This document shows, piece by piece, positions 1 to 20,749 of a stretch of 64,000 nt of DNA. The translations under genes were made by a program, and so were the position numbers. Location: positions 5,926 through 69,925 of the forward strand of contig JAGLNJ010000051.1 of assembly GCA_023139575.1 (NCBI GenBank). The letters are read 5' to 3'. Source of the stretch: Candidatus Omnitrophota bacterium. Lineage in GTDB: Bacteria; Omnitrophota; Gorgyraeia; Zapsychrales; JANLHA01. The notes beneath the pieces are model-generated. The model made no database searches. It worked only from the letters and a program-made list of their open reading frames with translations, and was not told the origin of the DNA. Positions within the stretch are counted from its first letter, which is position 1. Each line of letters begins with the position of its first letter.

Positions 1-3000
1 ACTGCACAATATTATCGGCGTCCAGGATCTGCCCGTTATCACCCATGATAACCTTATCGCCAAAGCCCAAAATTGTCTTGAAAGAAGCGGCGCCGGCTTC
101 CCTTTGTCCTGTATAAGCTAAAACCGTGTCGGCATCAGGATTTACTTTTAAAGCTAAAGTATTTTCATCACGCGTTAAGGTGTCATTAATTCCTCTGAGA
201 ATGAAAGATTTATCGCCTTTTTGTTTATCCAAAAAGCCCGCTAAACCGTCACTAAAAAATTTCAGCGCGTCCTTATCTTTTATTTTACCTTCCAGCACAG
301 ACAGCTCTGCCGTTCTTTTATTTAACCTCTCTTTATCCGGATCGCTGCTATAATTTTTTTCTTTATCAGAAGGTGTTTTTTCTTTTTCCGTTTCGGGGCC
401 CTTCACATCCGGCCCGGCAGGGCCTCCCGCCCCCGGTATCTGTTCTTCTTGTTCAGATTTCTTTTTGTTAGTATCATATTGATCTTTAAGAATTTTATAG
501 TATTTTTTGGATATAGGGCCTGATTCATGGGCTGCTGTTCTGCGATAAGGTGTGCCGTCAACGCCAGAACTGGCGCTGGCATAAAGATTATTGGCTTCTT
601 CTTCGATACTTGAAGTTTCTTTTGAAGGCCCGGGCTCTGACTGGCTCTCTTTCTCTTTGGGTTTTTCTTTGGGCTCTGTCGACAATTCGGTCTTTTTCTC
701 TTCTGGACTATCCGCTCCCGGCTCTTTTTTATCTTTTACTTCCCCCTTTTTATCGCGGGGTTTTCTTTCGTCATGTATAATTCCATCCATATTCATATCT
801 ACACCGCCGCCTTGAAACCCTGCTTCTTCTTGCCTCTCTTTTAAAAACTCTTTAGGGTCGGTAAAAACGGCAGATATGGATACATCCTCCCATTTTATTT
901 CTTCATACATGGATTCCCGGCCAAACGTGGCGTATATATAAGAGGATTCCTTGCCGAAAACCGGAGACCTTGACGACAAAGAAATTTCATTATAGACATA
1001 AAGCGATTTATCCCCTTCACCGCTTTTACCAAAGAGCACCTGTTCATTTGCCGATGTAATAGTGACCTCCTCCCCGCCTTCACCGCTTAAGATATCTAGG
1101 AGAGCCGCCATTGTTTCATATTCTTCTATAGACTCCTCTCTTAGATCAGAATCATCCTTCAAGTAAGAAGAATCATCCATCAAATAAGAAAAATCACCCG
1201 TCAAGCCAATAGAACCCGCATACAAATCCCCAGACATCAAGCTAAAAGCGCCAGTATTCAAAGCCCCATCCAGAGCGCCTTTACCGCTGAGAACATTCAG
1301 GAGGGCCTCAGAATAGCCCCCAGCTTTGAGTTCATCCAGGAGAGCTTCATTCTTTTCATCTGAAGAGCCTCCACCGCTGAGAACGTCTATGATGGCCTCA
1401 GAATAGCCATCAGCTTTGAGCGCATTTAGGAGCGCTGCCCACTTTTCATCTGGAGAGCCTTTACCGCTGAGAACATCTATGAGGGCCTTAGAATAGCCCC
1501 CAGCGCTGAGAACTTCTAGAAAGTCAGATAATTTTTTATCCGAATTATAACTAATTGTGATACGCTTTGCCTTCTTTCCAGGCAAAAAAATACCTTTTTC
1601 CCACCCTTCTAAAAGACTGGCAATGGTAAAGCCATCCGCATCGTGGCCGCTCTCCTCGCCATAGGAAAAGGCGCTGATCTCTTCATTAAGCATTCCGTCT
1701 ACTCCTGCTAGACGTGCTAAAAGCGTGGCGTCATCTACTTTCGGTTCAACAGATAACAGGTTTTCATCCACACCTGCCAGGCGCACAAGAAACGTGGCGT
1801 CATCTTCTTTCGATTCAATAGATAATCTTTTTGCGTCTTCCCCTTCTAAAAGAGCATGGCTGGTAAAGGTATCCCTGTCACCCGCGCCCTTCTCCTCAAA
1901 GAAATAGGAGCCCGTCCCTTCAAAGTTCAGCATGACATCGGCCTTAACGCCGTCTACACCCAAGCCCGCCACGCTTGCTATAATTTCAGGGTCTTCGTCT
2001 ATCCGCCTGTGGATCTCCACCAGATCGCTATCCTTAGAAAACGGCTTAAACAGGACATTTCCAGCCTTATCCTTCACTACTATTTCTTCCGGATCGATGC
2101 CCAGCGACTCTGTTTCCTCTTCAGTAAATTTAAGGCGCGGATCATTAAAGCCCTTATGCGCTACTGGATCAACTTTGCCTTTCGCGTTTATACTATAACC
2201 CGCGCGCATGAAACTTTTTCTTTTACCGCCAAACACGCCGATCAATTCAGCATCAGTGAGCCCCGGAGTCAATGGGCTGGCATAACCCAGAAGCACCAGC
2301 AATTTATCAAAGCCTTCTCCCCCGTCATACCTTCTGATCGAGCGGTATAATCCTAAATGCGTTAACATGTCAGTATATGACTGATTCGTTGACGCGCTTG
2401 AAAGGGCAATGCCCAAACTGGCATTTACATTAGCCTGCATGTGCTTGGCCAAGACGGTGTTTAAGGCCTTCGTTGAATGGAGAACAGCGGCGCTTTCAAT
2501 AATGTCATGGCCGGCCAGGCGCAGTTGCGCGTCATAATAAACATCGCTCGGAGCGTGCTCAATATCCCCGTCGTCATACAGTTCCTGCTGTTCGGCCTTG
2601 TGCTCAGCAAGCTGGTCCTCATAATCTTCAATATCCCGGAACTCTTGAGGGCTCAACCCGGCGCGGGCGCTGGTTTCATCAGCAAAGGCGACAAAGCTGT
2701 CCGGCCCGAACACAAATTTATCGTCTGAATTAGACATGAAGGCGTGATATGTCAGTTGGCCGACGCCGTCCTCATCTGTTTTTCCTTTTGAAGCGAATCC
2801 GGCTGTCCCATTAAATGCGGGGTGGTTGCCGTCGAAAGTTGTATAAGAATAAAGAAAATCATATCCCATTTCCAGTAAGGAGTTGCCAAATACCGAAACG
2901 AAAACACTGCCGGCGCCTTTTTTATCACTTTCAGAATGATTTTTCTTGCCGTCATACATATCCGTAAAGCTTGCCGGTGTCAGGCTGGCTAATGAAGCTG

Positions 3001-5590
3001 TTATCCCCTTTGCCGCGGCTGACCCTAAAAAGAGCAATGAGCGGATCTTCAAGGTGGCTATAACTTGTTCTTCTCCACTCGATAAACCGCTATCGGCATG
3101 GTCCTTCCCCACATTATTATCAATAACGGCGGCGATTCCTACGGTAATCAGAGACTGCAACAAAGATTTGAGCATCTCACCGCCAATGGTACACTCAACT
3201 ATTTCTCCCTTAGAATTGGCATATGTCCCCAACGGAGTACCGTCTTTCTCATCTCCTGCGCTGGCGATATAGAGGATAGCGGCTAAATTAGCCCCCAGTT
3301 CTCCCACAGCCTCGGAAAGAAGCGATTCCGTGTCAACATCGAACTCATCAGCCGCCAGTCTGCGCAGATAATAGGATGCCAGGCTTTTTGTAATTGTCAT
3401 ACCGGCGGATTTCGCCCAATTGATTAAAGAAACAACCGCCGTATTATAAACATCAACCCTAGGGCCGCCGGCATCGACTTCTCCCTTGTGCGTGAGGCCC
3501 ATAAAATCTCTGAAATACGTGCCGCACGTTTCGTCTGCGATATGAGCAAAAGAAGTCATAGCGAAGGATGTGGCTATAGAAGTAATCGCCCCTGCCAAGG
3601 CGGATCTCAACTGCGGATCCATATCCTCATCAAGGTGTTCATAAACATAATCTGATATTTCCCTGCTTATGTATGCCTTCACCAGACCTTGCGCGAAACC
3701 GTGCGCGAAACCGGTAAAAAAGACTTTTGTCATACTCATTCTGGTAATATCCAAGGCCGCCTTATTAACAACTTGCTTTTTAACCGTATTCGAAACTGTA
3801 GATGTCCCTGAAGTCCTGAACAATCTGGCAACTTTTGCTTTTGCCTTGCTCCAGGTTTTGGCCGCCCACTTCCCGGCAGCAGAATTGGCGATTTTATCCC
3901 CCGCCACCTGTAATAATGTCCTTTCAGCAGTGCTAGCCCCGGCTTGGGGGGCCATCGCAAGATCAACGAAAACTTGTGATGCTTGGGCTGCTTGGGTGGC
4001 GGTCCCCCCTGAAGTCATAACATCACCCGCTATTTCTCCTGCCTGTGCAGCGAGTTCTTGTGAAGCCCCTGCATTAATGGCTTGGGCTGCCCCTTCTCCT
4101 GCGGCGGCCGAAGCTGCGGCATCTCCCCCCGATTTTACAAAGTCTTTTCCTGCTGCTTCTCCTGCAGCCTTTGCCATTTCTTGCGTTCCCCCGCTCTTGA
4201 CTGTGTCGGACGCCGCTTGTCCTGCGGCGACTTTTGATCCTTCCGTTGCCCCTTCTCGTAATCCTTCTGCAACTATAGCCTGTTCCGCCGCCAACGCTGC
4301 GGCCTGCGCGACCATTAAACAGCTAAAACCCACTGTCAATGCTATAGTCAGGGCGGTTCCCACCAGCATCGCCGTACCGGGGTCACAAGATCCGGTAACT
4401 TGACAAGCTTGAGCCCAGGTGCTGGTCATCTCGCTTCCGGCAACTCCCATCACTGCAACTACCGCCCCACCTGAGGCACCTACAGCTCCCAGAGAGCCCA
4501 TCCACCCTCCAAAAGCGATAGATACAACGGATATCACAATATGAAGCATCATAGCGCTGCCGCTGATAAAGCCGGGCAGGTCGTCGGATTTATCTACCCA
4601 GGCATTGCCCCAAACAAAGGCCTTTTGGGCATCCGGGATAATTTGGCAGGCTATTTTTTGTTTATCTAAATCCGGAGCTAAAACAAAACCGCTGAACTGT
4701 CCCAAAAACTCTTCAATTGTAAGGATCCTGAGTTTGCCGATATCTGTAATAATCACTTCATCGTTTTCTTTGTCAACGCTCTTGACCATAACAAAGTGCT
4801 CAGGATCCAGGTTGGCAATAAAAGGCGTCTGGATCTTAAGGGCATCCTTATCTGACACTTTCGCCGCAATAAGATTAAGGCCATAAGGCTGGGCAATTTT
4901 ATCCATCGCGAACAAGGACGTCTTCAACTCAGGTTCGCCCGGCTTTACAATCTCGTTCAAAAGATCAACAATGAGCGTCGCTTGCGACAATTCTTCCAAC
5001 GTTTGATAAATATTTCGGCTTGCCAAAAGGTCTCGTAACGCATAAATACCGCAATTCAACGGATGAATGTCAGGATCCTGCAACCAGGATGCCACCTGGT
5101 TTATGCTGTTTTCATCGAATCGCAGCTTAGTCTCCAGGGAGATTTTCTTCGGCTCTTTGCCAACCATTTTGCCGCCTTCAATTCTTGTGTCAGATATATA
5201 GATATTAACACGGGGATTATCGCGGTAAGCAACTTGGCCTAAAAACTTGCGCATGGCTTTAGCTAATTCAAGGGATAATTCTTCAGCAGTCATCGGCTCT
5301 GGAAAGAGAAAAGGCAGGTCTAACGGGTTCTCTTGCGGGGCTTGAAACTTTTCAGCTCCCCACAAAACACGGGGATCATAGCTTAACGCCCAGGAAATCT
5401 GTTCAGGCACAAACACTAACACAACGAGCAGGGCAATAGTTCGCAGCCAAGTTTTAAAACGGCTCTTGAAAGGCTGCTCCGGCTTTTTATCTAAAACGAA
5501 GGCAGAGAAGTCCCCATGATCAATATTATTAATAATATTGCTATTATTTACACTTTGGGAGCCTGCATTATTGTCCAATCTGTCTTCCAT
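1..5590 (-). CDS. Giant repeat-containing secreted/membrane-anchored protein, partial (>1860 aa; 3' end beyond window edge). N-terminal signal-anchor helix, Ala/Gly-rich low-complexity block, 30-aa x3 and 23-aa x2 tandem repeats
   Basis: Reverse complement from the ATG at 5588-5590 reads open (MEDRLDNNAGSQSVNN...RTIALLVVLVFVPEQ...) down to position 1. An in-frame TAA lies 2 codons upstream of the ATG. The ORF track lists no other M-to-stop minus-strand ORF in this frame over 5.6 kb, consistent with one long frame whose stop is outside the window. Plus-strand 'ORFs' here are low-complexity mirror frames. Confidence 0.6.
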   Translation of the reverse strand, partial: MEDRLDNNAGSQSVNNSNIINNIDHGDFSAFVLDKKPEQPFKSRFKTWLRTIALLVVLVFVPEQISWALSYDPRVLWGAEKFQAPQENPLDLPFLFPEPMTAEELSLELAKAMRKFLGQVAYRDNPRVNIYISDTRIEGGKMVGKEPKKISLETKLRFDENSINQVASWLQDPDIHPLNCGIYALRDLLASRNIYQTLEELSQATLIVDLLNEIVKPGEPELKTSLFAMDKIAQPYGLNLIAAKVSDKDALKIQTPFIANLDPEHFVMVKSVDKENDEVIITDIGKLRILTIEEFLGQFSGFVLAPDLDKQKIACQIIPDAQKAFVWGNAWVDKSDDLPGFISGSAMMLHIVISVVSIAFGGWMGSLGAVGASGGAVVAVMGVAGSEMTSTWAQACQVTGSCDPGTAMLVGTALTIALTVGFSCLMVAQAAALAAEQAIVAEGLREGATEGSKVAAGQAASDTVKSGGTQEMAKAAGEAAGKDFVKSGGDAAASAAAGEGAAQAINAGASQELAAQAGEIAGDVMTSGGTATQAAQASQVFVDLAMAPQAGASTAERTLLQVAGDKIANSAAGKWAAKTWSKAKAKVARLFRTSGTSTVSNTVKKQVVNKAALDITRMSMTKVFFTGFAHGFAQGLVKAYISREISDYVYEHLDEDMDPQLRSALAGAITSIATSFAMTSFAHIADETCGTYFRDFMGLTHKGEVDAGGPRVDVYNTAVVSLINWAKSAGMTITKSLASYYLRRLAADEFDVDTESLLSEAVGELGANLAAILYIASAGDEKDGTPLGTYANSKGEIVECTIGGEMLKSLLQSLITVGIAAVIDNNVGKDHADSGLSSGEEQVIATLKIRSLLFLGSAAAKGITASLASLTPASFTDMYDGKKNHSESDKKGAGSVFVSVFGNSLLEMGYDFLYSYTTFDGNHPAFNGTAGFASKGKTDEDGVGQLTYHAFMSNSDDKFVFGPDSFVAFADETSARAGLSPQEFRDIEDYEDQLAEHKAEQQELYDDGDIEHAPSDVYYDAQLRLAGHDIIESAAVLHSTKALNTVLAKHMQANVNASLGIALSSASTNQSYTDMLTHLGLYRSIRRYDGGEGFDKLLVLLGYASPLTPGLTDAELIGVFGGKRKSFMRAGYSINAKGKVDPVAHKGFNDPRLKFTEEETESLGIDPEEIVVKDKAGNVLFKPFSKDSDLVEIHRRIDEDPEIIASVAGLGVDGVKADVMLNFEGTGSYFFEEKGAGDRDTFTSHALLEGEDAKRLSIESKEDDATFLVRLAGVDENLLSVEPKVDDATLLARLAGVDGMLNEEISAFSYGEESGHDADGFTIASLLEGWEKGIFLPGKKAKRITISYNSDKKLSDFLEVLSAGGYSKALIDVLSGKGSPDEKWAALLNALKADGYSEAIIDVLSGGGSSDEKNEALLDELKAGGYSEALLNVLSGKGALDGALNTGAFSLMSGDLYAGSIGLTGDFSYLMDDSSYLKDDSDLREESIEEYETMAALLDILSGEGGEEVTITSANEQVLFGKSGEGDKSLYVYNEISLSSRSPVFGKESSYIYATFGRESMYEEIKWEDVSISAVFTDPKEFLKERQEEAGFQGGGVDMNMDGIIHDERKPRDKKGEVKDKKEPGADSPEEKKTELSTEPKEKPKEKESQSEPGPSKETSSIEEEANNLYASASSGVDGTPYRRTAAHESGPISKKYYKILKDQYDTNKKKSEQEEQIPGAGGPAGPDVKGPETEKEKTPSDKEKNYSSDPDKERLNKRTAELSVLEGKIKDKDALKFFSDGLAGFLDKQKGDKSFILRGINDTLTRDENTLALKVNPDADTVLAYTGQREAGAASFKTILGFGDKVIMGDNGQILDADNIVQ
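1278..1547 (-). repeat. Three tandem 90-bp (30-aa) in-frame repeats inside the giant gene (protein unit ~LLxxLKAxGYSEAxIDVLSGxGSxDEK)
   Basis: Direct repeat ccttTaccgctgagaac... recurs at 1278, 1368 and 1458 with 90-bp period. Confidence 0.7.
1700..1840 (-). repeat. Two tandem 69-bp (23-aa) in-frame repeats inside the giant gene (unit ~K[EV]DDAT[FL]L[VA]RLAGVD)
   Basis: Motif cgtggcgtcatc at 1724 and 1793, period 69 bp. Confidence 0.55.
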
Positions 5591-6420
5591 AATTTAGTTT
5601 TTTAGTTTCGAATGTCCAGACTTATTTGCTCGTTTATTTTCTCCCCCAAGAAAATGCGCCAAAATGACGAGAAATAAATTGGAACGACTTGGCTGGATTC
5701 TAACTCGTGAGGAAGGCAGAATCCAGCTCTCTCGTTTAATTCAAATCGAGAGAAAAGAGCGGCTGTGATACATTGAACCTTGTATAATAATCGTCTACGA
5801 CCAAGACGATTTGATGAAGCTAAAATTTTGTTTTTTTGTATGCTATTCTTGATTTTTCGCATGTTGCTTTAGGTTTAATGCCATCCATTAAAAAAGGACT
5901 ACCGTGTATTATGGTAGTCCTATAGAATATTCACCTATCAGGCTGTTTTTGCTGAGTTGTTTTTGTGACCGTCGCGGTTAGCCGCATTCTCACTCCATGT
6001 TTAAATGAATTTAAACCAACTCTGAACTATGCCTTATAAGTATAACATAATAATATATATTGACAAGCTTGCGAATAAATTTTTTTAAGATACATCTTGT
6101 TGGTATATATTAAGTTACAATCTTATCAAAAAACTCTTTCACATAAAAAATAATAATTTTTCGGGTAATAATATTGCAAACGCTTTCTTTCCATCCCATA
6201 GAACGCATAAATTTACATTATATACAAGGAACCCCTTTCACTCCACCTTATTCCATATGTTGCGGAGAAAGAAATTTGTTTCAATTATAAAACCACAAAA
6301 GTTACATTGGTAAACCATTGTTTAATTTTTTGTTCAAACTAAGGAAGTATTAACAAGCCTTAAAGTAGATTGGACATTTGATTCGAATTCAAAAGCGCTG
6401 CAGTATTGACATTTATAGCT

Positions 6421-6455
6421 GCAAAAAGGGCGCATTACTTATTTAGAATGCGCCC
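6421..6455 (-). terminator. Rho-independent terminator closing the tad operon (after tadC)
   Basis: Perfect 9-bp inverted repeat GGGCGCATT-N10-AATGCGCCC (6428-6455). It is followed on the minus strand by TTTTT (plus-strand AAAAA 6423-6427), about 20 nt downstream of the tadC stop. Confidence 0.7.
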
Positions 6456-6477
6456 TTGGATAAAATATCTTATTTTT

Positions 6478-7368
6478 TTATTCTTCTATCTTACTGGTCA
6501 TCTGATCCATTGGATTAGTTTCTAAAAATTGCAGAAAAATCGGCCCCGCAACCAAAATACCAACAGTAGGAAAGATAAAGAATAATAGCGGAACTAAAAG
6601 TTTCAACGGCGCTTTCATAGCCATTTTCTCGCCCCTTCGATAACGCGAAGTACGCATATCTTCCGAAAGCATGTTCAGAGCCTCTGAAACAGACGTTCCC
6701 ATTTTGTCCGCCTGAATAAGCGTTCGGGAAAAAGTAGCCAGTTCCGCAAGATCATATTTAGATGAAAGGTCTTTTAAAGCGTCTCTGCGCGTTTTACCGA
6801 CATTAATCTCCTGAAGCAAAGTGTTGAGCTCACTTACCATGACAGAGGGAGGGGATTTCTCGACAACCCATTTTAACGCCAACATAAAGTCCAAGCCGGC
6901 ATTGACACAAAGACCTAATAAGTCAATGGCGTCCGGCAATTCTTTAACCATAACCCCCTTCACGAAGCGTATCTTTCCCTTCAACCAATATTCGGGAAGC
7001 ATATAGCCAAAGCAAAAGCTCATCAAAAACCAGAAAATCATCATGTCAGGCTTAATCATCGGATAAGAAATGGCCAAAACAAAAATGATGCACACTTCTT
7101 TAATGAAAAAAAATTCTTCCGGCGAAATCGGAAGGTGAGCCACAGACAAATCTTTAACAATTCTCGTTCTCAGCTTGCCGGAGCAAAACGGTTTATTTAT
7201 CAAAGCAATCTTCCTGAATATCGATTGTTTTTTTCCTTTACTATCCCCATCGGAAGAGGCATAACCCAGAGCCTCCAGAGTGGGTCGGCTTTCCCAACCT
7301 AAGGGAAAAAGGCCGAGAATAAAACTGAACCCCGAAAGAAATACCATCGTCAATATAAAAATAATCAT
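6478..7368 (-). CDS. tadC: Tad/Flp pilus assembly inner-membrane protein TadC (GspF/T2SSF domain)
   Basis: 296 aa with multiple TM helices. Central T2SSF-like block ELPDAIDLLGLCVNAGLDF...RRDALKDLSSKY...LIQADKMGTSVSEAL, typical of TadC/CpaH. Confidence 0.8.
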   Translation of the reverse strand: MIIFILTMVFLSGFSFILGLFPLGWESRPTLEALGYASSDGDSKGKKQSIFRKIALINKPFCSGKLRTRIVKDLSVAHLPISPEEFFFIKEVCIIFVLAISYPMIKPDMMIFWFLMSFCFGYMLPEYWLKGKIRFVKGVMVKELPDAIDLLGLCVNAGLDFMLALKWVVEKSPPSVMVSELNTLLQEINVGKTRRDALKDLSSKYDLAELATFSRTLIQADKMGTSVSEALNMLSEDMRTSRYRRGEKMAMKAPLKLLVPLLFFIFPTVGILVAGPIFLQFLETNPMDQMTSKIEE

Positions 7369-7430
7369 GTCTTTCTACCCTTTCATTAACCCCTCTTTGC
7401 TGACAGCTCAGGCGGCTGAGAGCTCGCCTA

Positions 7431-8285
7431 TTAGTAGTCCTTCGACGTGCTGATCTTCCAAATCATAGCGGCGCCGATGATCTCGGAAAATGCCGCATAA
7501 ATCAAAAGAGCCCGTCCATTCTGCGACTGGATCATATGATTAAAAAATGTCGGGTTCGCTCCGTATACAATAAAGAAAAAAGCCACCGGAAGCAATGACA
7601 TAACAACGCCCTGAATTTTACCTTGTATTGTCAACGTGTCAATTTGCCCCTGAACGCGCTTCTGTTCACGAATAACACCCACAATACGAGAAAAGATAGC
7701 GGGTAAATTACCTCCTGTCTCTCTCGCCAGAAGAATGGCTGTTGTCATCTGCTGCAAAGCCGACGACGGCATGCGATTGTATAAATGGTTGAACGCCTCT
7801 TCTAAGGAAACTCCCATTTTATTCTCGCCGAGAACCGTCCCGAACTCTTGATTGATAGGGTCCGGCATTTCTTCGACGACCGCTTCCATGGCCTGAATTA
7901 AACTCAACCCACCTCTAAAAGAACTCGACATAATCATCAAGGCATCAATTAACTGATTATTAAATTTTCTTCTATTGCCCTGCAACAAGGCCTTTGTATA
8001 AAGCCCCGGAAACAAAACACCAAAGGCTATGCCGATAACAATGCTGAAAACGCGCACTTGCGCCGGAGCTATCGCATAGCCGATCGCGCCGCCAACGAGA
8101 GGAGCTAAAAGATATACTTGTGAAATTTTTTGAATCTGCTGACGAGGAATTATCCTGTCCAATTTGTTGGACAATTTTTGGGCTCGCTTTTGACTTAAAC
8201 CCACTGTTTTATTATAGACGGTAGGCACCACAGAATACCCTATTAAGGCCGCGGTACAAAAAACTAAAAATAATGTGATCGCCAT
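7431..8285 (-). CDS. tadB: Tad/Flp pilus assembly inner-membrane protein TadB (GspF/T2SSF domain)
   Basis: 284 aa. T2SSF-like block FRGGLSLIQAMEAVVEEMPDPINQEFGTVLGENKMGVSLEEAFNHL...ARETGGNLPAIF. It sits directly upstream of tadC. Confidence 0.8.
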   Translation of the reverse strand: MAITLFLVFCTAALIGYSVVPTVYNKTVGLSQKRAQKLSNKLDRIIPRQQIQKISQVYLLAPLVGGAIGYAIAPAQVRVFSIVIGIAFGVLFPGLYTKALLQGNRRKFNNQLIDALMIMSSSFRGGLSLIQAMEAVVEEMPDPINQEFGTVLGENKMGVSLEEAFNHLYNRMPSSALQQMTTAILLARETGGNLPAIFSRIVGVIREQKRVQGQIDTLTIQGKIQGVVMSLLPVAFFFIVYGANPTFFNHMIQSQNGRALLIYAAFSEIIGAAMIWKISTSKDY

Positions 8286-8366
8286 TTTGTTTCCTTACTT
8301 TTTTACTTTAAAAAAGCCGCTCTGAAACCTCTTTTCTTAGTCCTCTTCTTCAGGGGGGCATTTTCC

Positions 8367-8879
8367 TTATTCCTTAATACCCCAGCACATATTGCTATTA
8401 CAATTTTCGCTTCTGCAATCTGCTATGCAGATCTGACACTTTGTAGCATATTCATCATGATCTTTCGGCAAATCGCAATCACAATTAGCGCGAAAGCACT
8501 GTGATCCCACCCATATATTCATGGCTCCATCTGCCTGGGCGCAGGTATCACATATCGGTTCTCCGACAGGAATCGGACTACAAGGCGGATCATCAAGCGT
8601 GCAGCAGGGTACCAGCCATCCGGGCATTGTATAAACATTCAGGCCCCCCGTAATCACTACAGAATCATAAAAACATTCTTCCGTCGCGTTCGGATCATAC
8701 TGCTTGCCGTGGCCGAAAGAATTACCGGCATTACGCCATTGACCGGACAAACCTCGTGCTAAATATTTTTGGAAAACAAAAAATGTGCTGGCAATAAAGA
8801 ACATGACAAACATATATTCCAAGGCCGAAACTGCTTTTTTATTGTTTGCATTAGTAAATAATATTTTCTTTTTATTCAT
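8367..8879 (-). CDS. Cysteine-rich Flp/TadE-like pilin-like protein (170 aa, about 18 Cys)
   Basis: N-terminal class-III-signal-like segment KKAVSALEYMFVMFFIASTFFVF followed by YLARGLSGQWR...QYDP, a motif shared with pilin paralogs 4 and 7. The C-terminus is packed with Cys (CCTLDDPPCSP, CDTC, CDCDLP, CQICIADCRSENCNSNMC). Confidence 0.55.
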   Translation of the reverse strand: MNKKKILFTNANNKKAVSALEYMFVMFFIASTFFVFQKYLARGLSGQWRNAGNSFGHGKQYDPNATEECFYDSVVITGGLNVYTMPGWLVPCCTLDDPPCSPIPVGEPICDTCAQADGAMNIWVGSQCFRANCDCDLPKDHDEYATKCQICIADCRSENCNSNMCWGIKE

Positions 8880-8901
8880 CTCTTATTCTTATTCGATTTG
8901 T

Positions 8902-11900
8902 TTAATTGGCGCCGGACAAAAACGCCCCGTCACACGGCACAAATTTTAACCGCATGCCTTGGTTTGCGTATAACATAGAATCACCAACACTCCTTGTCAC
9001 CAAATAGCCAAGCTCACCCATTTCACCCTCATCAAAGAAATACGCCGCGCAACTTTCCTCTACTACCCCGTGAGGCAACAAGTGCTCATGCACATAATTC
9101 CAACAATTAATATACTCAAGCTTTGAAAAACCCAGAGCCATTACCCCCCACTGAGCATCCGTTATAGCATGCGGGAAAGTGGCAATAGAATATTTGCTAT
9201 AATTTAACATAAACGCATAGCCCCACTCTGACCCATCAAGTAATTGTAACGGCCGGCACGCTCCTTCGACGCCAGCAACCTCCCCAGCTGAAAGTTCATC
9301 CGCTGCGGGATTATAATCACGAATCTCCCATAAATCTGAGTCGTCTGGAAACGTGATTACTCCTTGCACCTCTTCCGATTCATCAAACCGGATAACGCGC
9401 ACCTTTACCATACCCTCTGTGGAAACCAATTCATAACAACGGCTCGTCCCCCAATCCTTCGTGTAACTATCCACACGCGGCCACTCGGGATCCGGGCCAC
9501 CAACAGAATCAGGCCCTCCCTCAACAGGCCAATAACCGCAGGCATTATTACACCGTCCGGGAGCCCTTACCTCAACCTTGACAGCATGCCAGAAACCTTT
9601 GGAGCTTCCGTCTGCGCGCAACTCATCATCTTCCAGATCTTCGTCCTGCCACACATAAACGACGACAGATGCCGTTCCTTTTGTGTCCTCATAATTAAAG
9701 CGCGCTTGCACCATGGTTTCCATCGGAGAGTCCTGATCAAAAGGCGCGGGTGACGCCGTATTAAAAGGACTGTTTCCGTCAAGAAAGGCCGTAAAATGCT
9801 TCCATCCGTCATGCAAAATAAGCATGGCCCTTAAAGCTTCTTTCAATCTCGCTTGCAGGAACAGAAATCGTTTTTTAAATTTTGCCACCTGATTTTCCGC
9901 GTTTTTCATACAAGCTTCTGCTGTAGCCAAAAAAGCTCCCGAAGGATTAAAGGATCCTTGTGTCAGTTCCAAGCTCTCCACCAAAGAATCATACCATGTT
10001 GAATCATGCCATAAGGCTACTTCGGCGGCGGTAAACTCAGGCTCAGCAATCAGCCAAGCGCAACTAAAATAATTTTCCGGCAAAACCGTTTCCTCTTCAT
10101 AAGGCTGATCCCAAATCGGAAGCAAATAAGGATAATCAAAGGCCCAGCCGAAAGGCATCGCGGCCGGAGAGCAAAGAGTGATGCAGTCTGCGATCGCCGC
10201 CGGGTCTGGCGGTGGAACCATAAGATCCGGGGTGATATTGAAACATGCGTCAAAGGCAGCTTCATGTGCCGGGTCCGCGGGCCACTGCCATGCAGGCAGC
10301 GTAACAAGCAGCCCGGCCGAAGTGCGGTACTCCTGGGGCAACACTGAATTATTACAATTAGCCCTGCACTCCGCCATATTTGCCGAATTATAGCAAGTAT
10401 CAAACAACGCGCTTGCGACAGGATCCGGTGTTAGTTCATTAAAGTCCGGATCAGTCGCATCTCTTGCAACCAAGACCGCCGGACGGAAAGAGGCGTCACC
10501 CATAGACGGAAGAGGCGTGCCGGGAAAAGTATGGCAACTCCCTAAATTATAAGGCGGTTGTGTCATGGTTAGAGCATTTGTTACCGCATCAAAAAAGATC
10601 GTGTTATACAGTGGATCTGATGGATCATGAAACCAGGCACAACTACCCGGCTCAAGTGACGGTGGTGGTGGATCCTCAAAAACAGGCGGCACAAAGGCCG
10701 GCAATCCGGCACAATAATAATTACATTCAATAACATCCGCTGACACCAGGCATCTCATTATCTCTTCCGACGCTCCCGCGTTGCCGAAATCCATCCCCTG
10801 GAAGAGAATGGCGTCCGCCCCGGGAACCAGACACCGCGGCAATAACAAACAGGCCTCTGCCGCTCCGGCAGAATCCCCGGAAAAAAGAGCGTCAAAACAT
10901 CTTTGAAACTTCTGAGCATTTCCGATCGCGGGCGCGAGACCGCTTAGAGGGTATGTTCTTTCATCATTGACCTGCCAATTCAAACAGCTGACCACATCAA
11001 ACAGGTCTCCTCGAGACGGCTGATCAAACTCATCTGTAACGCTTCTTGTAAACATGGTCGGATCTATTTCGTTATAAACGGCCGCGGGAAAATCATCAAA
11101 AATCCAGTCACCCGCAGCAGGAACATAGTTAAAGCTGTCCGCTTCACCAAGAACAAACCCTATCGTCGGCGTTACATAAGGACATTCATTGACCCCATAT
11201 TCATTGGGGGCTGCTTGTTCCGGCGGGACGCACCAAACATCCATCTCGTTGCAACTGTCGGCAACATAGGGATTCGGCAGCACACCAATACCAAGGTCTT
11301 TAGTGTCCATACCTGCGGGATAAAAGCCCGGATGAGGAAATCCTTCATTAACTCCCATGCCATAAGGAGGGGAAAGATCAAAAGGCGGTGCTTGAGCATA
11401 AATCCAATAAAATATCCTCCACCAAAAACGATATATCTCATAACGCCATACCCATAACGTCCCATCATTTCCTTTTACAAAACTAAAAGGACATGCCCCT
11501 CCCTTAGCTCCCATATCCTCATCCAGGCGCTCTCCTGTATTAACATTTACACAAGGAGCCTCAAGCCAAGAGGATGCTATTTTATACCATTCCTTAGTTG
11601 TTTTTACCAATGCCCGTAAATTCTGGTCCAAAAGTGTTTCTGCATAAGAATAAAATTCACTTAAACCATAGACGATTTCGTCCAAAGAGTCTTCTGGATA
11701 CTCGGCTGGATCAGTCCCTCCGACCCCGCAATCACATGTATACGGCACATCCTGCAGATAAGGAAATCTAAGCCTCCTCTCTTGAGAATACGGGTCTGTG
11801 TGGTCTTCCCATGACGCGTCATCATAACACGCTCGATGTTTCGGGCAGTTTCCTTCATAAGGATACACATCCGAACAGAAACGATCCGCCCCCCTCTTCC

Positions 11901-13716
11901 ATCCCCCCTCACCTAAAGGATCCGCAGCGCAAGTGTCATCGTCGGCAATTAACCCTGCCGGCATCGGGACCTTATCCGCCAGCTGAGGAGGGTCACCCGC
12001 AGCGCCGGTATTGGCTTCGTCCAAACACCAATCGCCGCTGAAAGGAGCGTCACCTAAAATGTTAGGAAGTTCAAGCCGACTATTAATTCCATCGTGATCA
12101 TCATCGGCCATTTCCGGATATATATCAGCTAAAATACATGGCACCCCCGATCTTACATCACAATAAACACATTGATCATCAGTGTAATCTAAATATAATG
12201 GGGACAATTCTGTGCCCCAATCGGCAATTTTATGAAAAAGCTGAAAAATCCCTCCAGCAGGATAATTGTCGTTCAAAAGTCCCGGGCGCAAATCATAATT
12301 CATGGCATAAATCGGTGTTTTGTAATAACCCGAGACGTCATCTAATCTAAAAAGGCCTTCAATGGAACTCCCGACCGTGCTTTCCTGCCGTGTCAAACGC
12401 AGCCTGTCAGGATTGGCCGCATCAAAATAAGCCGGGTCTGTCGGGTTATAACGATAGAGATGGTGCTCATCATCCCGCCCCAGCAACTCTCTAAACGAAT
12501 AAAATCCATTAGTATGGTCTTCATATGCCGAATCGTAAATCTCTTCATATATTTCTCCGGCTTTATCATACGGCGTATTAGCCACACAAAGAGCCGGGTT
12601 CCCGCAAGGGTATTGCGGATCTCCAGGATCGTTACAGCAAGGCGGCATCACCGGAAGATTCTCTTCTCTGCCGTCGAATATAAGCACCCCCAAAATATCT
12701 ACACCAAAATCAGACACACAGCACGGATTACATTCTGAAGGCATGTCCAAAGGGAAGTCCGCAGGGAGGGATGGAAAGTTTCCCGGGCAGCACGGGTGTA
12801 TACCTGCCGAGGTAACACAATCTACCGGGTCTAAGAGTCCCCAGGTAGAAAACTGAGCGTTAAGATCATTACACAAGGCCACGTTCATGCCACTACTCCC
12901 ACAGTCAATATTGCATTTACCCGGATCCGCGTAAAGAAAACATGCCATGGATTGCTGAAAAAACTGAATAGCGTTAACCGGCGGGGCAATTATTGTTCGC
13001 AGTCGGTCTGTATAATAATAGGCAAACCGGGAAACATAATCACTGGCTTCATTCCTGGCAATGGCCGCATTCGTCTCCCAGTTAAGATCCTGATCAATAT
13101 CATGGAGGTCTGGAAAATAAACCTGATCCGTAATCGAATTCTGCAGCCCCATCAAAATCCCCCGCTCAATGAGCATGTCTTCAATAGAAAGGGCTTCTGC
13201 CATCATTTTATTCCATAGAGTCGTAATCCCGGGCTGCACAATTGTTAGTTGGACAACTAAAGAAGCCACAGACAAGATTAGAGCAAGACCCAAACAGACC
13301 AACTTCAGGGCAACGAAAGTCGCTGTCCCCGCGGAGGCGATAGTGATTATTATCGCAATAATGACAATGACAATCGTAAAGATGGCTTTTAAAACACCCG
13401 TCATGCCGCAAATACGCTGACGGCCCCCTAAAACTTCTTGAAATATTCTTTCCCCGTAGCTGGCCATTAAAGAAACCATATGCCCGGCAGATGCATTCGC
13501 CGCCATAACCGCAATGGTCTTGGTCCGTGAAACTCTCCCCATATTCATTACAGCCGCATAAATAATAAGAGCCAGGGCGGCTATAAGAATAAGAACAACG
13601 CCGACTTGGCCAGAGGTGTTTTTTAAAGAAGTTCTGTTTTTTTCTGAAAAGGAAAAAACGCTGTTTTTCCTGAAAACGTTTTGAATATTTTTTCGCAATA
13701 ATCTAAACATTAACAA
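8902..13716 (-). CDS. Giant (1604 aa) cysteine/proline/aspartate-rich TadG-like pilus-associated protein; putative pilus tip or adhesin
   Basis: N-terminus SGQVGVVLILIAALALIIYAAVMNMGRV resembles the Tad N-terminal (TadE/G-like) membrane domain. Two further TM helices follow, then a huge extracytoplasmic region with many CC/CxC motifs (HPCCPGNFP, CNPCCVSDFG, PPCCNDPGDPQYPCGNPALC) and D/P/Y/W-rich segments. It sits inside the tad operon. Confidence 0.6.
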   Translation of the reverse strand: MLMFRLLRKNIQNVFRKNSVFSFSEKNRTSLKNTSGQVGVVLILIAALALIIYAAVMNMGRVSRTKTIAVMAANASAGHMVSLMASYGERIFQEVLGGRQRICGMTGVLKAIFTIVIVIIAIIITIASAGTATFVALKLVCLGLALILSVASLVVQLTIVQPGITTLWNKMMAEALSIEDMLIERGILMGLQNSITDQVYFPDLHDIDQDLNWETNAAIARNEASDYVSRFAYYYTDRLRTIIAPPVNAIQFFQQSMACFLYADPGKCNIDCGSSGMNVALCNDLNAQFSTWGLLDPVDCVTSAGIHPCCPGNFPSLPADFPLDMPSECNPCCVSDFGVDILGVLIFDGREENLPVMPPCCNDPGDPQYPCGNPALCVANTPYDKAGEIYEEIYDSAYEDHTNGFYSFRELLGRDDEHHLYRYNPTDPAYFDAANPDRLRLTRQESTVGSSIEGLFRLDDVSGYYKTPIYAMNYDLRPGLLNDNYPAGGIFQLFHKIADWGTELSPLYLDYTDDQCVYCDVRSGVPCILADIYPEMADDDHDGINSRLELPNILGDAPFSGDWCLDEANTGAAGDPPQLADKVPMPAGLIADDDTCAADPLGEGGWKRGADRFCSDVYPYEGNCPKHRACYDDASWEDHTDPYSQERRLRFPYLQDVPYTCDCGVGGTDPAEYPEDSLDEIVYGLSEFYSYAETLLDQNLRALVKTTKEWYKIASSWLEAPCVNVNTGERLDEDMGAKGGACPFSFVKGNDGTLWVWRYEIYRFWWRIFYWIYAQAPPFDLSPPYGMGVNEGFPHPGFYPAGMDTKDLGIGVLPNPYVADSCNEMDVWCVPPEQAAPNEYGVNECPYVTPTIGFVLGEADSFNYVPAAGDWIFDDFPAAVYNEIDPTMFTRSVTDEFDQPSRGDLFDVVSCLNWQVNDERTYPLSGLAPAIGNAQKFQRCFDALFSGDSAGAAEACLLLPRCLVPGADAILFQGMDFGNAGASEEIMRCLVSADVIECNYYCAGLPAFVPPVFEDPPPPSLEPGSCAWFHDPSDPLYNTIFFDAVTNALTMTQPPYNLGSCHTFPGTPLPSMGDASFRPAVLVARDATDPDFNELTPDPVASALFDTCYNSANMAECRANCNNSVLPQEYRTSAGLLVTLPAWQWPADPAHEAAFDACFNITPDLMVPPPDPAAIADCITLCSPAAMPFGWAFDYPYLLPIWDQPYEEETVLPENYFSCAWLIAEPEFTAAEVALWHDSTWYDSLVESLELTQGSFNPSGAFLATAEACMKNAENQVAKFKKRFLFLQARLKEALRAMLILHDGWKHFTAFLDGNSPFNTASPAPFDQDSPMETMVQARFNYEDTKGTASVVVYVWQDEDLEDDELRADGSSKGFWHAVKVEVRAPGRCNNACGYWPVEGGPDSVGGPDPEWPRVDSYTKDWGTSRCYELVSTEGMVKVRVIRFDESEEVQGVITFPDDSDLWEIRDYNPAADELSAGEVAGVEGACRPLQLLDGSEWGYAFMLNYSKYSIATFPHAITDAQWGVMALGFSKLEYINCWNYVHEHLLPHGVVEESCAAYFFDEGEMGELGYLVTRSVGDSMLYANQGMRLKFVPCDGAFLSGAN

Positions 13717-13727
13717 ACCTTATTTTA

Positions 13728-14039
13728 TTAATCATAAGGACGGTCCTTTTGAAAAATTTCGCTTCTCACGCTCGGTTGAAAGGGCGCTGTTCCTCCCTTA
13801 TAAAAACGCGGACGCAGTTGATAAAGGATGCCGTCATAACTTGCCGGAACATCTTCTATTAAACCATCTCGATGCGCCGCCAACCTTCCGATCAAGTCCT
13901 TGCCCGACCATACAAAAAGTCTGATCGTTCCCAAAATGATCAAAACCGTTCCGAACAAGCTAAAACACAATTCTAAGGCAACCTGTGCCTTATTGCGACA
14001 TCGCTGTTCCTTTTTTCTTCTAAACAAAAAAATACGCAT
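13728..14039 (-). CDS. TadE-like pseudopilin (103 aa)
   Basis: N-terminus KAQVALELCFSLFGTVLIILGTIRLFVW matches the TadE-type N-terminal hydrophobic segment; small size; lies in the tad operon. Confidence 0.5.
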   Translation of the reverse strand: MRIFLFRRKKEQRCRNKAQVALELCFSLFGTVLIILGTIRLFVWSGKDLIGRLAAHRDGLIEDVPASYDGILYQLRPRFYKGGTAPFQPSVRSEIFQKDRPYD

Positions 14040-14048
14040 TCCGTCTCC

Positions 14049-15587
14049 TTACAAATTAGAGCCAGGCACTCTTGTAATCCATTGATGCCCCCGCTGATCA
14101 TGCACGCGGGAACGGACAACCAACAACATCGTTTCCAGATCAAGACACGTTAATTCAACGTTGGAGCCTTCATAACAATTGCCGCAAACCTCAACCGGGT
14201 TGGTCATGCCGAAAACACCATGAATAGTCGCAAAAGGAAGCCCTCCTGCCCCATATATAATAGTTTCGTCGGCTTCTTCCCAATTTACAGGAACACCGTT
14301 ACGGCAAAACCTCCCGGTATCGTTAGTTATTTTAAAAATCCTCTCTATAATATCAAGATTCTCCTGAATTAAAGTATGGCGTGTTTGACTGTTTTCCAAC
14401 TCATAAGCATTCGTTAACGCGCTTCCGTCTCCTTCAAGGCCGGTAAAAGAATACATTGTCATATCTGGCAGAAGACCAATCTTAATATAGGTTTGGGCAG
14501 GGTTTCGCAGCAAGAATATCTTAAGATCCATATCATCTTCGGCATTGTTTAAATCACCTTCTTGAGAATCCATAACTCTCAATTTTGTAACAACCCCATA
14601 TTGATCCGTTGACCAGTCAACAATACTTTCTTCTCTCAGATCCCCATCAACATCTATCAGTGTGTTAATCTGTTCGTCAGGTAATATCCCTCTTATCCCT
14701 TTATAAAAAGAGTCATCGAAAAACACATTTTTGTACTTCTTAAACTTGTCGTGGTTAACACCGGCCACCGGCATCCATTGCCATGCAAATTTACTTCGGG
14801 CAGCCGCAGTGGCTACATCAGGGGCACCGCCGCTAAAGTCCAAATCAAAACGATTCACTTCGCCAGCTTTAAAATCGTAAGGCTGGCTTTGATTGGCGAG
14901 CCTAGCAAAAAATATTGTACAGCCGACAATGCCAACACCGGGAAGAAACATGCATTGCGACTTATAACACGTACCATGAGGCGCTATGCTTTCCAAAGCA
15001 GGAACTGCAGCGTAATACGGGCTGCATTCCTGGAGGTTAACAACTCTTGTTCCTCCCGACCAGGTGTCCTGCCAGCTCACAGCGGCATTACCCGTGCCGG
15101 AAGGATAATTATAGCGGCGAAAAGCGGATAATGTAAATGGAAAACGCTGCCCGTTTATAAAAATATCCTGAACGGGAAGATTCCAATGCTCACAAATACC
15201 GTTTTCATTTGGGCATTCTACAGGATAAAACATAGCTTTAGTAAACGACGCGCTAGCTGATGCGACAAAAGGAATCCTGTCCCGAGTGCCTGTGGGTTGG
15301 GAAGCATCTGCCGACAACCTGTCTTCCAAAACCAATACTGACGCCGTATTCCGAGCTGCAGACGTCTGATAGGTTATGGTTCCATAGTTATATTTACCTT
15401 CTCCCGTGCGAAAAGACTCAATCATAGCCAGACGCATCGTCTTCAGGCTCTGATTCATCATTGAGCTGGACTGCAGGGCAGCCTTCACGATGAGCCCAAT
15501 AATAAAAATAACAATGGCTCCGAAAATGGCTAATTCGGTAGCTGATTGTGCTAATCTCAATTTTTTTTTCTTTGGGCTATTCAACAT
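14049..15587 (-). CDS. TadG/TadE-like large pseudopilin (512 aa)
   Basis: N-terminus KKKLRLAQSATELAIFGAIVIFIIGLIV (class-III-like A-Q-S-x-x-E-L plus a TM helix), followed by a large Cys-containing soluble domain. It lies immediately downstream of the pilin array. Confidence 0.55.
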   Translation of the reverse strand: MLNSPKKKKLRLAQSATELAIFGAIVIFIIGLIVKAALQSSSMMNQSLKTMRLAMIESFRTGEGKYNYGTITYQTSAARNTASVLVLEDRLSADASQPTGTRDRIPFVASASASFTKAMFYPVECPNENGICEHWNLPVQDIFINGQRFPFTLSAFRRYNYPSGTGNAAVSWQDTWSGGTRVVNLQECSPYYAAVPALESIAPHGTCYKSQCMFLPGVGIVGCTIFFARLANQSQPYDFKAGEVNRFDLDFSGGAPDVATAAARSKFAWQWMPVAGVNHDKFKKYKNVFFDDSFYKGIRGILPDEQINTLIDVDGDLREESIVDWSTDQYGVVTKLRVMDSQEGDLNNAEDDMDLKIFLLRNPAQTYIKIGLLPDMTMYSFTGLEGDGSALTNAYELENSQTRHTLIQENLDIIERIFKITNDTGRFCRNGVPVNWEEADETIIYGAGGLPFATIHGVFGMTNPVEVCGNCYEGSNVELTCLDLETMLLVVRSRVHDQRGHQWITRVPGSNL

Positions 15588-15614
15588 TTTTATATTAACT
15601 TCTCGGGTTGCTCT

Positions 15615-15944
15615 TTATGGAATTAACGATACGGATCCTGCCACGGACTGTGTCATATTCGCCGTATCAAGACGCAAAGTCCAATATCCCGGCTCGCTGT
15701 TAACAAGGTCTGGAACTGCTTCCGTATATGTTGTCGAATTGCCGGTCGTCGAATACGTCACCGCACCATTCATAAGCTCAGGATCATATTGATCGCCTAT
15801 CCCGTCAACGGCATCGCGCCACCTTCCCTGAATCCCTCTTTTAAAATAAATGCCGCCGACAAAAACAGCGGCCACAATAATCGTTGTCAACACAATATAC
15901 TCTGAAGCGCTTTGTCCCATCTTTTTTTTCATTCTAATGAGCAT
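15615..15944 (-). CDS. Flp-type prepilin paralog 7 (109 aa)
   Basis: MKKKMGQSASEYIVLTTIIVAAVFVGGI carries the G/QSxxEY class-III signal plus a TM helix. YFKRGIQGRWRDAVDGIGDQYDP is shared with paralog 4 and the 170-aa Cys-rich protein. RBS GGTGG lies upstream of the ATG at 15944. Confidence 0.7.
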   Translation of the reverse strand: MLIRMKKKMGQSASEYIVLTTIIVAAVFVGGIYFKRGIQGRWRDAVDGIGDQYDPELMNGAVTYSTTGNSTTYTEAVPDLVNSEPGYWTLRLDTANMTQSVAGSVSLIP

Positions 15945-15967
15945 TTTCCACCTTCTTTTTTCACCCT

Positions 15968-16318: not shown

Positions 16319-16326
16319 AAATATAT

Positions 16327-16698: not shown

Positions 16699-16764
16699 TA
16701 ATCTATAAATATTAGTATGAATATTAAATAATTAAAATAGAAAATTTGCTCTACCTCACAAAAT

Positions 16765-16807
16765 AAAGAATGGCTTACCTAAAATTCCCTCAAGTAAGCC
16801 ATTCTTT
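16765..16807 (-). terminator. Perfect 14-bp inverted repeat (intra-cluster hairpin/attenuator) between pilin paralogs 4 and 5
   Basis: AAAGAATGGCTTAC-N15-GTAAGCCATTCTTT. On the minus strand it is followed by ATTTTGTG, in the 156-nt gap between the pilin-4 stop and the pilin-5 start. Confidence 0.45.
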
Positions 16808-16853
16808 ATTTAACACATTAAACATTCCTTTTACTTAAACTAGGGCGATGAAA

Positions 16854-17174: not shown

Positions 17175-17233
17175 TGATATATCCTCCTTATCAAATATTA
17201 GCATTTTAACGCTTTACCTAGCAAAGACTCACC

Positions 17234-20734: not shown

Positions 20735-20749
20735 TTCACTCCCGAAAGG

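Follow-up and report, generated by a model that had tools for sequence, protein, structure and literature searches.

The 5' end of a C39-headed giant gene behind a Tad-like cassette of Candidatus Omnitrophota, and the putative attenuator in its leader

What kind of gene begins behind the Tad-like pilus locus of an uncultivated Candidatus Omnitrophota bacterium and leaves the sequenced stretch with its frame still open, and how its expression may be governed, is the question raised by 64,000 nucleotides of contig JAGLNJ010000051.1 (GenBank assembly GCA_023139575.1, positions 5,926 to 69,925 of the forward strand), the whole of which is called the window below. A preliminary description of the window had noted a minus-strand open reading frame (ORF) running from 5590 to the window edge, and exact translation of 1-5590 yielded 1,863 codons from the ATG at 5590 with zero stops. 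The ORF does not end just beyond the edge, either: a contig in the European Nucleotide Archive (ENA; ZHAN22-2_SAMN18200494 scaffold_45, 81 kb), which was reached by looking up the neighbouring TadC in public assemblies and matches the window at 100% identity across 17,368 bp, carries a gene call of 13,703 residues that begins at TTG 5578 and extends to the end of the contig. The gene is thus at least 41.1 kb long, with the frame still open at the end of the longest contig found, and is a giant by the definitions set at 20-25 kb. The window holds the 5' end of a C39-headed giant gene that exceeds 41 kb and follows a Tad/type II secretion system (T2SS)-like cassette near oriC; on the reading considered likely, its conserved head would anchor and mature the product and its leader would gate transcription.

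The absence of a stop codon has, from the base composition, a probability of about 1e-47 for the 1,863 codons and of 1e-349 for 13.7 thousand residues, and the same sequence is present in four independent assemblies. The public gene caller starts the gene at TTG 5578, four codons inside ATG 5590; the latter is favoured as the start because the homologues share an N-terminus that reads M-[DE]-x-[KR]-x-D-N. The giant gene of this organism was not found in the species-representative genomes, and an exact 48-mer from the end of locus L005 had no match in the metagenomes of the Joint Genome Institute (JGI). The first 3,037 residues, taken from L005, are stop-free, and the statements below on the domains and composition of the giant protein cover these 3,037 of at least 13,703 residues (hereafter the readable part). 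In another assembly, L007, a scaffold gap of 100 N (L007:5467-5566) lies over the Ala/Gly-rich linker (window 3573-4377), which suggests that this linker is hard to assemble from short reads.

The conserved head comprises about 765 residues, in which a basic cytoplasmic tail is followed by a signal-anchor helix, an alpha/beta subdomain, a Peptidase C39 domain, about three transmembrane (TM) helices, an Ala/Gly linker and a four-helix module (Table 1). The features listed in the preliminary description are all present, at most a few dozen bases away from where it had put them, including its N-terminal signal-anchor helix, found at residues 48-69 (TM1) by hydropathy and in the AlphaFold (AF2) model, while the C39 domain, the second module, the conserved leader and a 7-residue repeat were missing from that list. 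TM1 is preceded by a conserved basic KPFxSRFKxW and followed by PEQxSWAxNYNPxVLWG. The C39 domain scores 35.2 bits against the Pfam gathering cutoff of 22 and is the sole Pfam domain in the readable part. Its catalytic Cys180, His265 and Asp283 are all invariant in an alignment of five sequences; in a 30-sequence alignment of 29-44% identity the Cys and the His are invariant and the Asp is nearly so (at least 90%). The AF2 model computed from an alignment of homologues has a predicted local distance difference test (pLDDT) score above 90 for residues 100-325, with the papain-like domain placed after the hairpin subdomain. A sequence search of the PDB with the head gave no significant match, and the relatives of the C39 fold had therefore to be sought by a fold search; the Foldseek matches of the model included PCAT1, the C39-like domain (CLD) of HlyB (3zua), HlyB/D complexes, 3b79 and the papain-like toxin 9l5u_B, with TM-scores of 0.67-0.75 against isolated C39 domains. 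There is also a match to 4g54, the periplasmic domain of the T2SS protein EpsAB (GspA-B), with E = 0.088, which is probably due to the subdomain ahead of the protease and is too weak to interpret. From the basic motif before TM1 and the acidic to neutral stretch after it, the positive-inside rule predicts that TM1 is oriented N-in, and therefore that the C39 domain lies outside the cytoplasm. Neither ABC_tran nor ABC_membrane was matched in the readable part by Pfam.

The second conserved module, which closes the head, is marked by the motifs FAxGFxxGxxxGY..LGDD..IxSS and QL..ARYxADE..DSxLSQAIG and was found with an iterative profile; 62 of the 123 family members have it, each time in collinear order behind the TM cluster, at about residues 430-720. 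The core of its AF2 model has a pLDDT of 74-92, and the modelled four-helix bundle is possibly membrane-embedded; the fold search against the PDB gave no significant match for it. Between the TM cluster and this module lies the Ala/Gly-rich segment that had been placed at about 3940-4330 in the preliminary description; its core was mapped to residues 426-551 (3938-4315), the Ala and Gly making up 41% over residues 451-600, and three ..V[KT]SGG.. strings occur in the linker.

Behind the head the protein is an orphan. In BLASTP against 84 relatives nearly every one shared residues 1-440, with hardly any similarity past about residue 830, and the word-indexed search of 5.8 billion proteins returned no homologues of residues 560-1250. 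The body is fast-evolving, acidic and Cys-poor, 2,587 residues of it having a net charge of -138 and containing 2 Cys. Two assemblies differ by 14 single-nucleotide polymorphisms (SNPs) in 2.6 kb of the body, 8 of them non-synonymous, and 9 of the 14, mostly non-synonymous, fall within the 26 codons for residues 826-851 (window 3040-3113), as against 0 SNPs in 5.5 kb of the Tad genes on the same contig. For the adhesin or fibre that had been suggested in the preliminary description Pfam gave no supporting domain; it found no Ig-like, cadherin or RTX domains in the readable part, nor any glycosyltransferase (GT), glycoside hydrolase (GH), methyltransferase, NUDIX, SecA_DEAD, GGDEF or dockerin/TSP3 domains. 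The tandem repeats of the body were located close to where the preliminary description had them, the three 30-residue units given there as 1278-1547 being about right (by Tandem Repeats Finder, TRF, period 90, 2.5 copies and 81% match over 1283-1504) and the two 23-residue units given as 1700-1840 being shifted slightly. The suggestion that the repeat region is a hotspot of length variation found no support, since the copy number is identical and indels are absent from the repeats across three independent assemblies (L005, L006 and L007).

The family is confined to one phylum among the sequences found. An initial database search returned four homologues, all of them C39 proteins from Omnitrophota, and a profile of the conserved N-terminal module retrieved 676 cluster representatives, many of 5,000-7,800 residues and with the module at the N-terminus; all homologues come from metagenome-assembled genomes (MAGs) of Omnitrophota. 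Among the 43 species-representative loci of the phylum that were retrieved with the head profile, TadB-TadC stands directly upstream of the giant ORF in 33, i.e. in nearly every locus with enough upstream sequence, the order p512-p103-p1604-p170-TadB-TadC-spacer-giant being typical of most; the earlier surmise that the neighbourhood of the Tad-like locus is meaningful was thereby supported, the link being conserved and not incidental. The attribution to the giant-ORF type of Omnitrophota was supported too. In 40 of the 43 loci the giant ORF extends beyond the retrieved DNA. The three short forms and the early-ending ORFs of L001 and L003 are each followed immediately by a long frame on the same strand, as would be expected of giants with an interruption; a true stand-alone head, of about 1,200 residues, was seen only once. 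The interruption in L001 is a single in-frame stop (L001:15734-15736) after which the frame continues, and changes between overlapping frames were observed at L003:7594-7619, L010:9431-9800, L033:12948-13027 and L041:11775-12018; these interruptions in five relatives could be sequencing errors, decay or recoding.

The gene of the window is a further case of an already described class, since the giant genes of Omnitrophota reported by West-Roberts et al. 2023 (bioRxiv 10.1101/2023.11.21.568195) also have a C39 domain close to the N-terminus, next to a signal peptide, and, upstream, the same kind of cassette of more than ten secretion genes, including gspD/E/F, rcpC, a Rotamase_2 peptidyl-prolyl isomerase (PPIase) and small genes with class-III signal peptides. 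It was suggested in that work that the C39 domain cleaves the giant protein or other substrates. The likeness covers the N-terminal C39 domain by a signal or anchor, the Rotamase_2-RcpC-GspD/E/F-like-class-III cassette, the few annotatable domains and the poorly conserved body, as well as the location near the origin, as in Velamenicoccus archaeovorus, in which the Tad locus lies 12-30 kb from the genome start and for which giant ORFs were described as phylum-wide (Seymour et al. 2023). The giant set of West-Roberts et al. 2023 was, in contrast, restricted to genes above 90 kb (more than 30 thousand residues), while at least 13.7 thousand residues are documented for the window gene from its first 3,037 residues and the gene call. 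Their types are 'Archaeovorin', with GT, GH, methyltransferase, NUDIX, SecA_DEAD and GGDEF domains in the body, and Dockerin, with dockerin/TSP3 repeats; pilZ genes downstream are a further feature of the class. A 24-member PF03412 architecture cluster was also found among the long proteins of Nielsen and Lui 2026. Neither a riboswitch, a promoter, a leader nor a second head module is mentioned in West-Roberts et al. 2023, Seymour et al. 2023 or Nielsen and Lui 2026, and the promoter and terminator-containing leader appear to be the part that is new.

The region upstream of the ATG, described earlier as about 850 bp and AT-rich, is a spacer of 887 bp with a G+C fraction of 0.33 against 0.49 in the gene, and such spacers are a feature of the class (median 954 bp, 0.36 against 0.47). 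The strong terminator that had been placed between the tad operon and the giant gene is an 11-bp perfect stem (6426-6457) with a 10-nt loop and a U5 tract (-18.5 kcal/mol, z = -3.9), which a simple terminator scanner overlooked owing to the loop length. About 360 nt downstream of it lies a near-consensus extended -10 sigma-70 promoter with an inferred transcription start site near 6032. The family motif of this promoter, TTGNNN-N13-16-TGNTATA[CT]T, occurs once each in 30 of 34 spacers, and only eight further times in 1.42 Mb, seven of these being just upstream of the ORF in loci devoid of TadC; 37 of the 43 species loci and the window have it. In an independent metagenome set it was found in 45 of 50 loci, with 0 matches elsewhere. 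As read from the sequence, the giant gene is its own transcription unit, set off from TadC by the terminator and equipped with a promoter for itself alone. Between the leader hairpin and the giant ATG there is also an 86-codon ORF (5602-5862, minus strand), which is probably non-coding because it has no Pfam match and is not called on the public contig.

The leader that would be transcribed from this promoter is about 440 nt long and contains a conserved element. The element closes, some 300 nt short of the ATG, with a hairpin resembling a terminator (arms 5913-5921 and 5895-5903, followed by U6 at 5889-5894; -14 kcal/mol, z = -4.9). A hairpin with a T-run at 80-400 nt before the start codon was found in 20 of 34 spacers as against 0.8 in shuffles, and the stems share sequence, with compensatory changes between relatives. 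The covariance model of the leader, built on 11 relatives with the window excluded, matches the window with 38.3 bits (E about 4e-5 in 772 kb). It also matches nine more loci and, in the independent metagenome set, 26 of 56; all of the matches precede the ORF and share its strand. All eight stem pairs covary (8/8) and 94% of the cells are paired, values reached by 0 of 500 shuffles, while the slid controls gave 29-57%. The segment 5889-5921 bears the marks of an intrinsic terminator, namely a GC-containing hairpin, a U-tract, compensatory changes and a location between a promoter and an ORF.

In two relatives of the most divergent clade, L049 and L101, an aptamer of the c-di-GMP-I-GGC family (Rfam RF03167) lies between the promoter and the terminator (L049:3108-3192 and L101:928-1073), with 69.3 and 69.7 bits, respectively, against a gathering threshold of 59, and in L101 the 5' arm of the terminator overlaps the 3' end of the aptamer. 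No statement of the ligand of this variant was found in the literature searched. The window leader itself was rejected as a c-di-GMP-I aptamer, for it has no match to the clan and the P2 hairpin is absent from the alignment; like most others it is devoid of the P2 hairpin and of both strands of the outer P3, and what it has in common with the aptamer leaders is a terminator hairpin of one family, together with part of the adjoining sequence. Rfam recognized no known RNA family in the window spacer.

Table 1. Coordinates of the giant ORF, its leader and the adjacent cassette in the window; the last row refers to relatives
Feature	Position	Strand	Basis or remark
Giant ORF, 5' part	1..5590	(-)	1,863 codons, stop-free; at least 13,707 codons counted from ATG 5590
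TM1, signal-anchor or signal-peptide helix, residues 48-69	5384..5449	(-)	hydropathy, AF2 helix 48-69, invariant columns
Helix + long beta-hairpin subdomain, residues 100-155, packed ahead of the protease domain	5126..5293	(-)	AF2, pLDDT at least 90
Peptidase C39, papain-like cysteine protease domain, residues 160-325	4616..5113	(-)	Pfam PF03412
Catalytic residues	Cys180 5051-5053; His265 4796-4798; Asp283 4742-4744	(-)	alignments
Cluster of about three TM helices, residues 338-446	4253..4579	(-)	hydropathy; AF2 helices 344-367, 374-398, 404-446
Ala/Gly-rich low-complexity linker	3806..4252	(-)	composition, mapping
Second conserved module, predicted four-helix bundle, residues 596-763	3302..3805	(-)	iterative profile, alignment, AF2
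Start of the orphan body	2..3301	(-)	BLASTP coverage, word-indexed search, Pfam, composition
Two 23-residue tandem repeats SxExKxDDATxLxRLAGVD, residues 1257-1302	1685..1822	(-)	15/23 identical
Three 30-residue tandem repeats LxxLKAxGYSEAxIDVLSGxGSxDEK, residues 1354-1446	1253..1531	(-)	TRF, mapping
7-residue x 2.8 repeat	1142-1195		TRF, mapping
Lys/Glu/Pro/Ser-rich charged low-complexity stretch, about residues 1620-1760	311..733	(-)	translation, composition
Conserved leader element with a terminator-like hairpin at its end	5889..6024	(-)	fold energy, covariance model
Dedicated sigma-70 promoter	6039..6066	(-)	motif scan; TTGTCA, 16-nt spacer between hexamers, extended -10 TGTTATACT
Intrinsic terminator closing the Tad operon	6421..6457	(-)	20 nt past the TadC stop
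Tad/T2SS-like cassette	6478..27126	(-)	Pfam; class-III signal peptides G/A|xxxxEY
Promoter-aptamer-terminator leader in relatives	L049:3096-3212; L101:869-1090		Rfam RF03167

In the mechanism proposed on these grounds, TM1 would insert the nascent chain N-in, so that the C39 domain would come to lie on the periplasmic side. The head would anchor and mature the giant polypeptide; its protease would cleave either the chain to which it belongs or a partner, and portions exposed at the surface would thereby be set free or shortened. The product may then work with the Tad-like machine when the cell attaches to others or attacks them, as has been proposed for V. archaeovorus. For the leader hairpin the proposed role is that of an attenuator, a conditional terminator that would control whether transcription proceeds into the 41-kb ORF. 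Ligand binding by the c-di-GMP-I-GGC aptamer of L049 and L101 would sequester the 5' arm of the terminator and turn the gene on, whereas in the window, where the aptamer is unrecognisable, another factor or simple partial termination may set the expression. The leader is accordingly read here as an attenuator, putatively riboswitch-controlled in some lineages. A wider version is put forward tentatively. In it the private promoter and the terminator, tied by evolution to the c-di-GMP-I-GGC riboswitch, would form a cis unit throughout the phylum that has not been described before; the complete aptamer would have survived in the divergent clade of L049 and L101, and the common form present in the window would be aptamer-reduced and dependent on another signal or factor.

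Several observations weigh against this mechanism. By hydropathy the homologues differ in how many TM helices follow the C39 domain, so that the body could start on either face of the membrane. Adhesin or glycoside-hydrolase domains were not found in the readable part by Pfam. No match to the c-di-GMP family was obtained in the window leader even at E up to 10 with the Rfam clan, and a recognisable aptamer is present in just 2 of the 58 loci scanned and in none of the 56 others; the hairpin could also end an independent small RNA instead of attenuating the giant gene. As for the substrate of the protease, a double-glycine-like motif PhixxPhi[ST]GG occurs in the giant ORF 3 times against 0.27 expected (candidate ..LSGG.. 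and ..ITGG.. sites lie within residues 1395-1410, 1887-1900 and 1919-1932), the motif having been defined post hoc, and in 84 relatives it is not enriched, with a ratio of 1.04-1.26 that equals that of the reversed control. The idea of many internal C39 double-glycine cleavage sites was rejected, as the sequences lend no support to such sites when the motif is post hoc and the family ratio is that of the reversed control. GG dipeptides as such are depleted in the bodies of the family (ORFs of loci L009-L051 and long P proteins; ratio 0.80-0.83, z about -7) and enriched in the adjacent ORFs of the Tad cassette (1.31), with no depletion in the window ORF (0.96); the interpretation of the depletion as an avoidance of cleavage sites was dropped.

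Other explanations of the head and body were weighed on the same evidence. The C39-like head may be not a working protease but a substrate-docking or chaperone domain which, in the manner of the HlyB CLD, holds the giant chain or a partner during export, as the HlyB structures among the Foldseek matches and the lack of a family-wide enrichment of double-glycine-type motifs would allow. The CLD of HlyB, however, is not known to carry the catalytic Cys, whereas Cys180 and His265 are invariant and Asp283 is kept in at least 90% over 30 diverged sequences, the Pfam C39 score lying above the gathering cutoff, and a docking role is regarded as improbable. Still less credit is given to the possibility that the C39 head processes the Flp-type (pseudo)pilins in place of the TadV/A24 prepilin peptidase. 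No A24 (TadV/CpaA) peptidase is encoded by the cassette or by any ORF of the 64-kb window, despite at least nine genes for proteins with class-III signal peptides, and the head keeps a strict synteny with TadB-TadC. But this role was judged unlikely on the grounds of topology and cleavage site: the cut in class-III leaders is made on the cytoplasmic side, behind one Gly or Ala (G/A|xxxxEY), which makes the prepilin-peptidase reading unattractive for a C39 domain that is predicted to lie outside, and C39 enzymes are known to cleave after Gly-Gly. Besides, an A24 gene may sit elsewhere in the genome, and a link to such a role was not found in the literature. A polymorphic-toxin-like effector, with the head serving to anchor and deliver a rapidly diversifying payload that reaches the neighbours via the Tad-like apparatus, would account for a conserved head on a hypervariable orphan body, for the SNP cluster in the body, with none in the Tad genes, and for the papain-like toxin among the structural neighbours. 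Neither a toxin nor an immunity domain was detected by Pfam in the first 3,037 residues, however, the size and TM-rich architecture are unlike those of known polymorphic toxins, and the variability starts right behind the head and not at the C-terminal tip; the chances of this reading are considered small.

The main competitor for the leader is an independent small RNA gene, conserved beside the giant gene and consisting of the promoter, an RNA of about 135 nt and the hairpin with its U6 tract. The unit is compact and conserved from promoter to terminator, the hairpin of the window stands about 300 nt away from the ATG, and most loci have no recognisable aptamer, so this reading has to be taken seriously, if with more doubt than belief. 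It is opposed by the promoter being the sole conserved one upstream of the ORF, by an orientation that is always that of the ORF, and by the overlap of the aptamer 3' end with the terminator at the same position in L049 and L101, which is a cis-regulatory layout. That the open frame arose as an artefact of assembly or belongs to a pseudogene in decay, as the scaffold gap at the Ala/Gly region in one assembly and the interruptions in several relatives might hint, is scarcely credible against the agreement of four assemblies, the vanishing probability of so long a stop-free frame, the strong purifying selection on the head across approximately 100 species, and the detection of peptides of the homologous class in V. 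archaeovorus (Seymour et al. 2023). In the same study the peptides of the giant protein were threefold higher in attached cells.

The anchored C39 protease with an attenuator leader, which is the preferred reading, may be compared with better-known systems. The C39-containing ATP-binding cassette (ABC) transporters PCAT1, ComA and LagD share the fold, the triad and the order of protease and then TM helices, and include the best structural matches. Unlike them, the window protein has a TM helix before the C39 domain, which predicts an extracytoplasmic protease, and no ABC ATPase in 3,037 residues, and no separate cargo with a double-glycine leader was identified for it; the combination of C39, six TM helices and ABC ATPase by which an exporter of the PCAT type is recognized is thus not seen in the window protein. 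The LapG/LapA system, in which a periplasmic cysteine protease frees a giant adhesin under the control of cyclic di-GMP (c-di-GMP), is alike in outline. The features compared are a papain-superfamily protease in the periplasm, where that of the window is predicted to lie, a giant protein that is putatively at the surface here, and a control of the cyclic-dinucleotide type, which here concerns two relatives. LapG, however, is a separate BTLCP (C93) enzyme under the post-translational control of LapD, while the protease of the window is a C39 domain fused to the giant, the control, where seen, is exerted via an RNA leader, and neither RTX nor type I secretion system (T1SS) features occur in the readable residues. 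The Ig-like, cadherin or RTX repeats of RTX/LapA-like or Bap-like adhesins are likewise not found by Pfam within the first 3,037 residues of the window protein. Among the known riboswitches, the likeness is to c-di-GMP-I (GEMM-I) in its variant RF03167, the aptamer of L049 and L101 having an overlapping intrinsic terminator.

The Tad locus named upstream in the preliminary description was confirmed by Pfam, and the Tad/Flp core set (RcpC/CpaB, secretin, CpaE/TadZ, CpaF/TadA, TadB, TadC and Flp pilins) is present in it. The cassette contains a Rotamase_2 PPIase, RcpC, a secretin-TonB_C fusion, a CpaE-CpaF fusion, DUF192 and a 629-residue orphan, as well as seven small Flp-type pilins, the pseudopilin-like p512, p103, p1604 and p170, and then TadB and TadC. 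The two fusions join a CpaE/TadZ-like ParA ATPase to a CpaF/TadA T2SSE ATPase (21091-23262, minus strand) and a secretin to a C-terminal TonB_C (23390-25270, minus strand). Judged from its sequences, the neighbouring Tad machine is unusually rich in (pseudo)pilins, since p512, p1604, p103 and p170 carry class-III-type signal peptides as the seven small pilins do. The orphans of 1,604 and 512 residues (8902-13716 and 14049-15587, both minus strand), each with a class-III-type signal and a hydrophobic helix, look like giant pseudopilins and have 24-41% identity across species; in the assembly L008, five of five SNPs fall in the 1,604-residue gene (10171-10616). Further upstream of the Tad locus are dnaA, dnaN, gyrB and gyrA, and yidC and parAB lie beyond the origin. 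In the origin region (36828-40605) dnaA and yidC are divergent, with a gap at 38172-39015 and DciA nearby; the window also encodes a 6S RNA (55066-55221; Rfam 65.6 bits) and five tRNAs.

Few known ORFs are longer than the giant genes of Omnitrophota, to which the window adds another member. The comparison sharpens what is constant in the family, namely the head of about 765 residues with an intact C39 triad and a helical module, the strict synteny with TadB-TadC, the long AT-rich spacer, the strong dedicated promoter and the structured leader with its terminator. The orphan riboswitch variant c-di-GMP-I-GGC becomes tied to a specific gene class, which may help to identify both its ligand and the trigger of giant-protein production in these episymbionts. 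If the cis unit tentatively put forward for the whole phylum is real, a second messenger would gate a gene of at least 41 kb, and thus attachment or predation, at the step of transcription termination.

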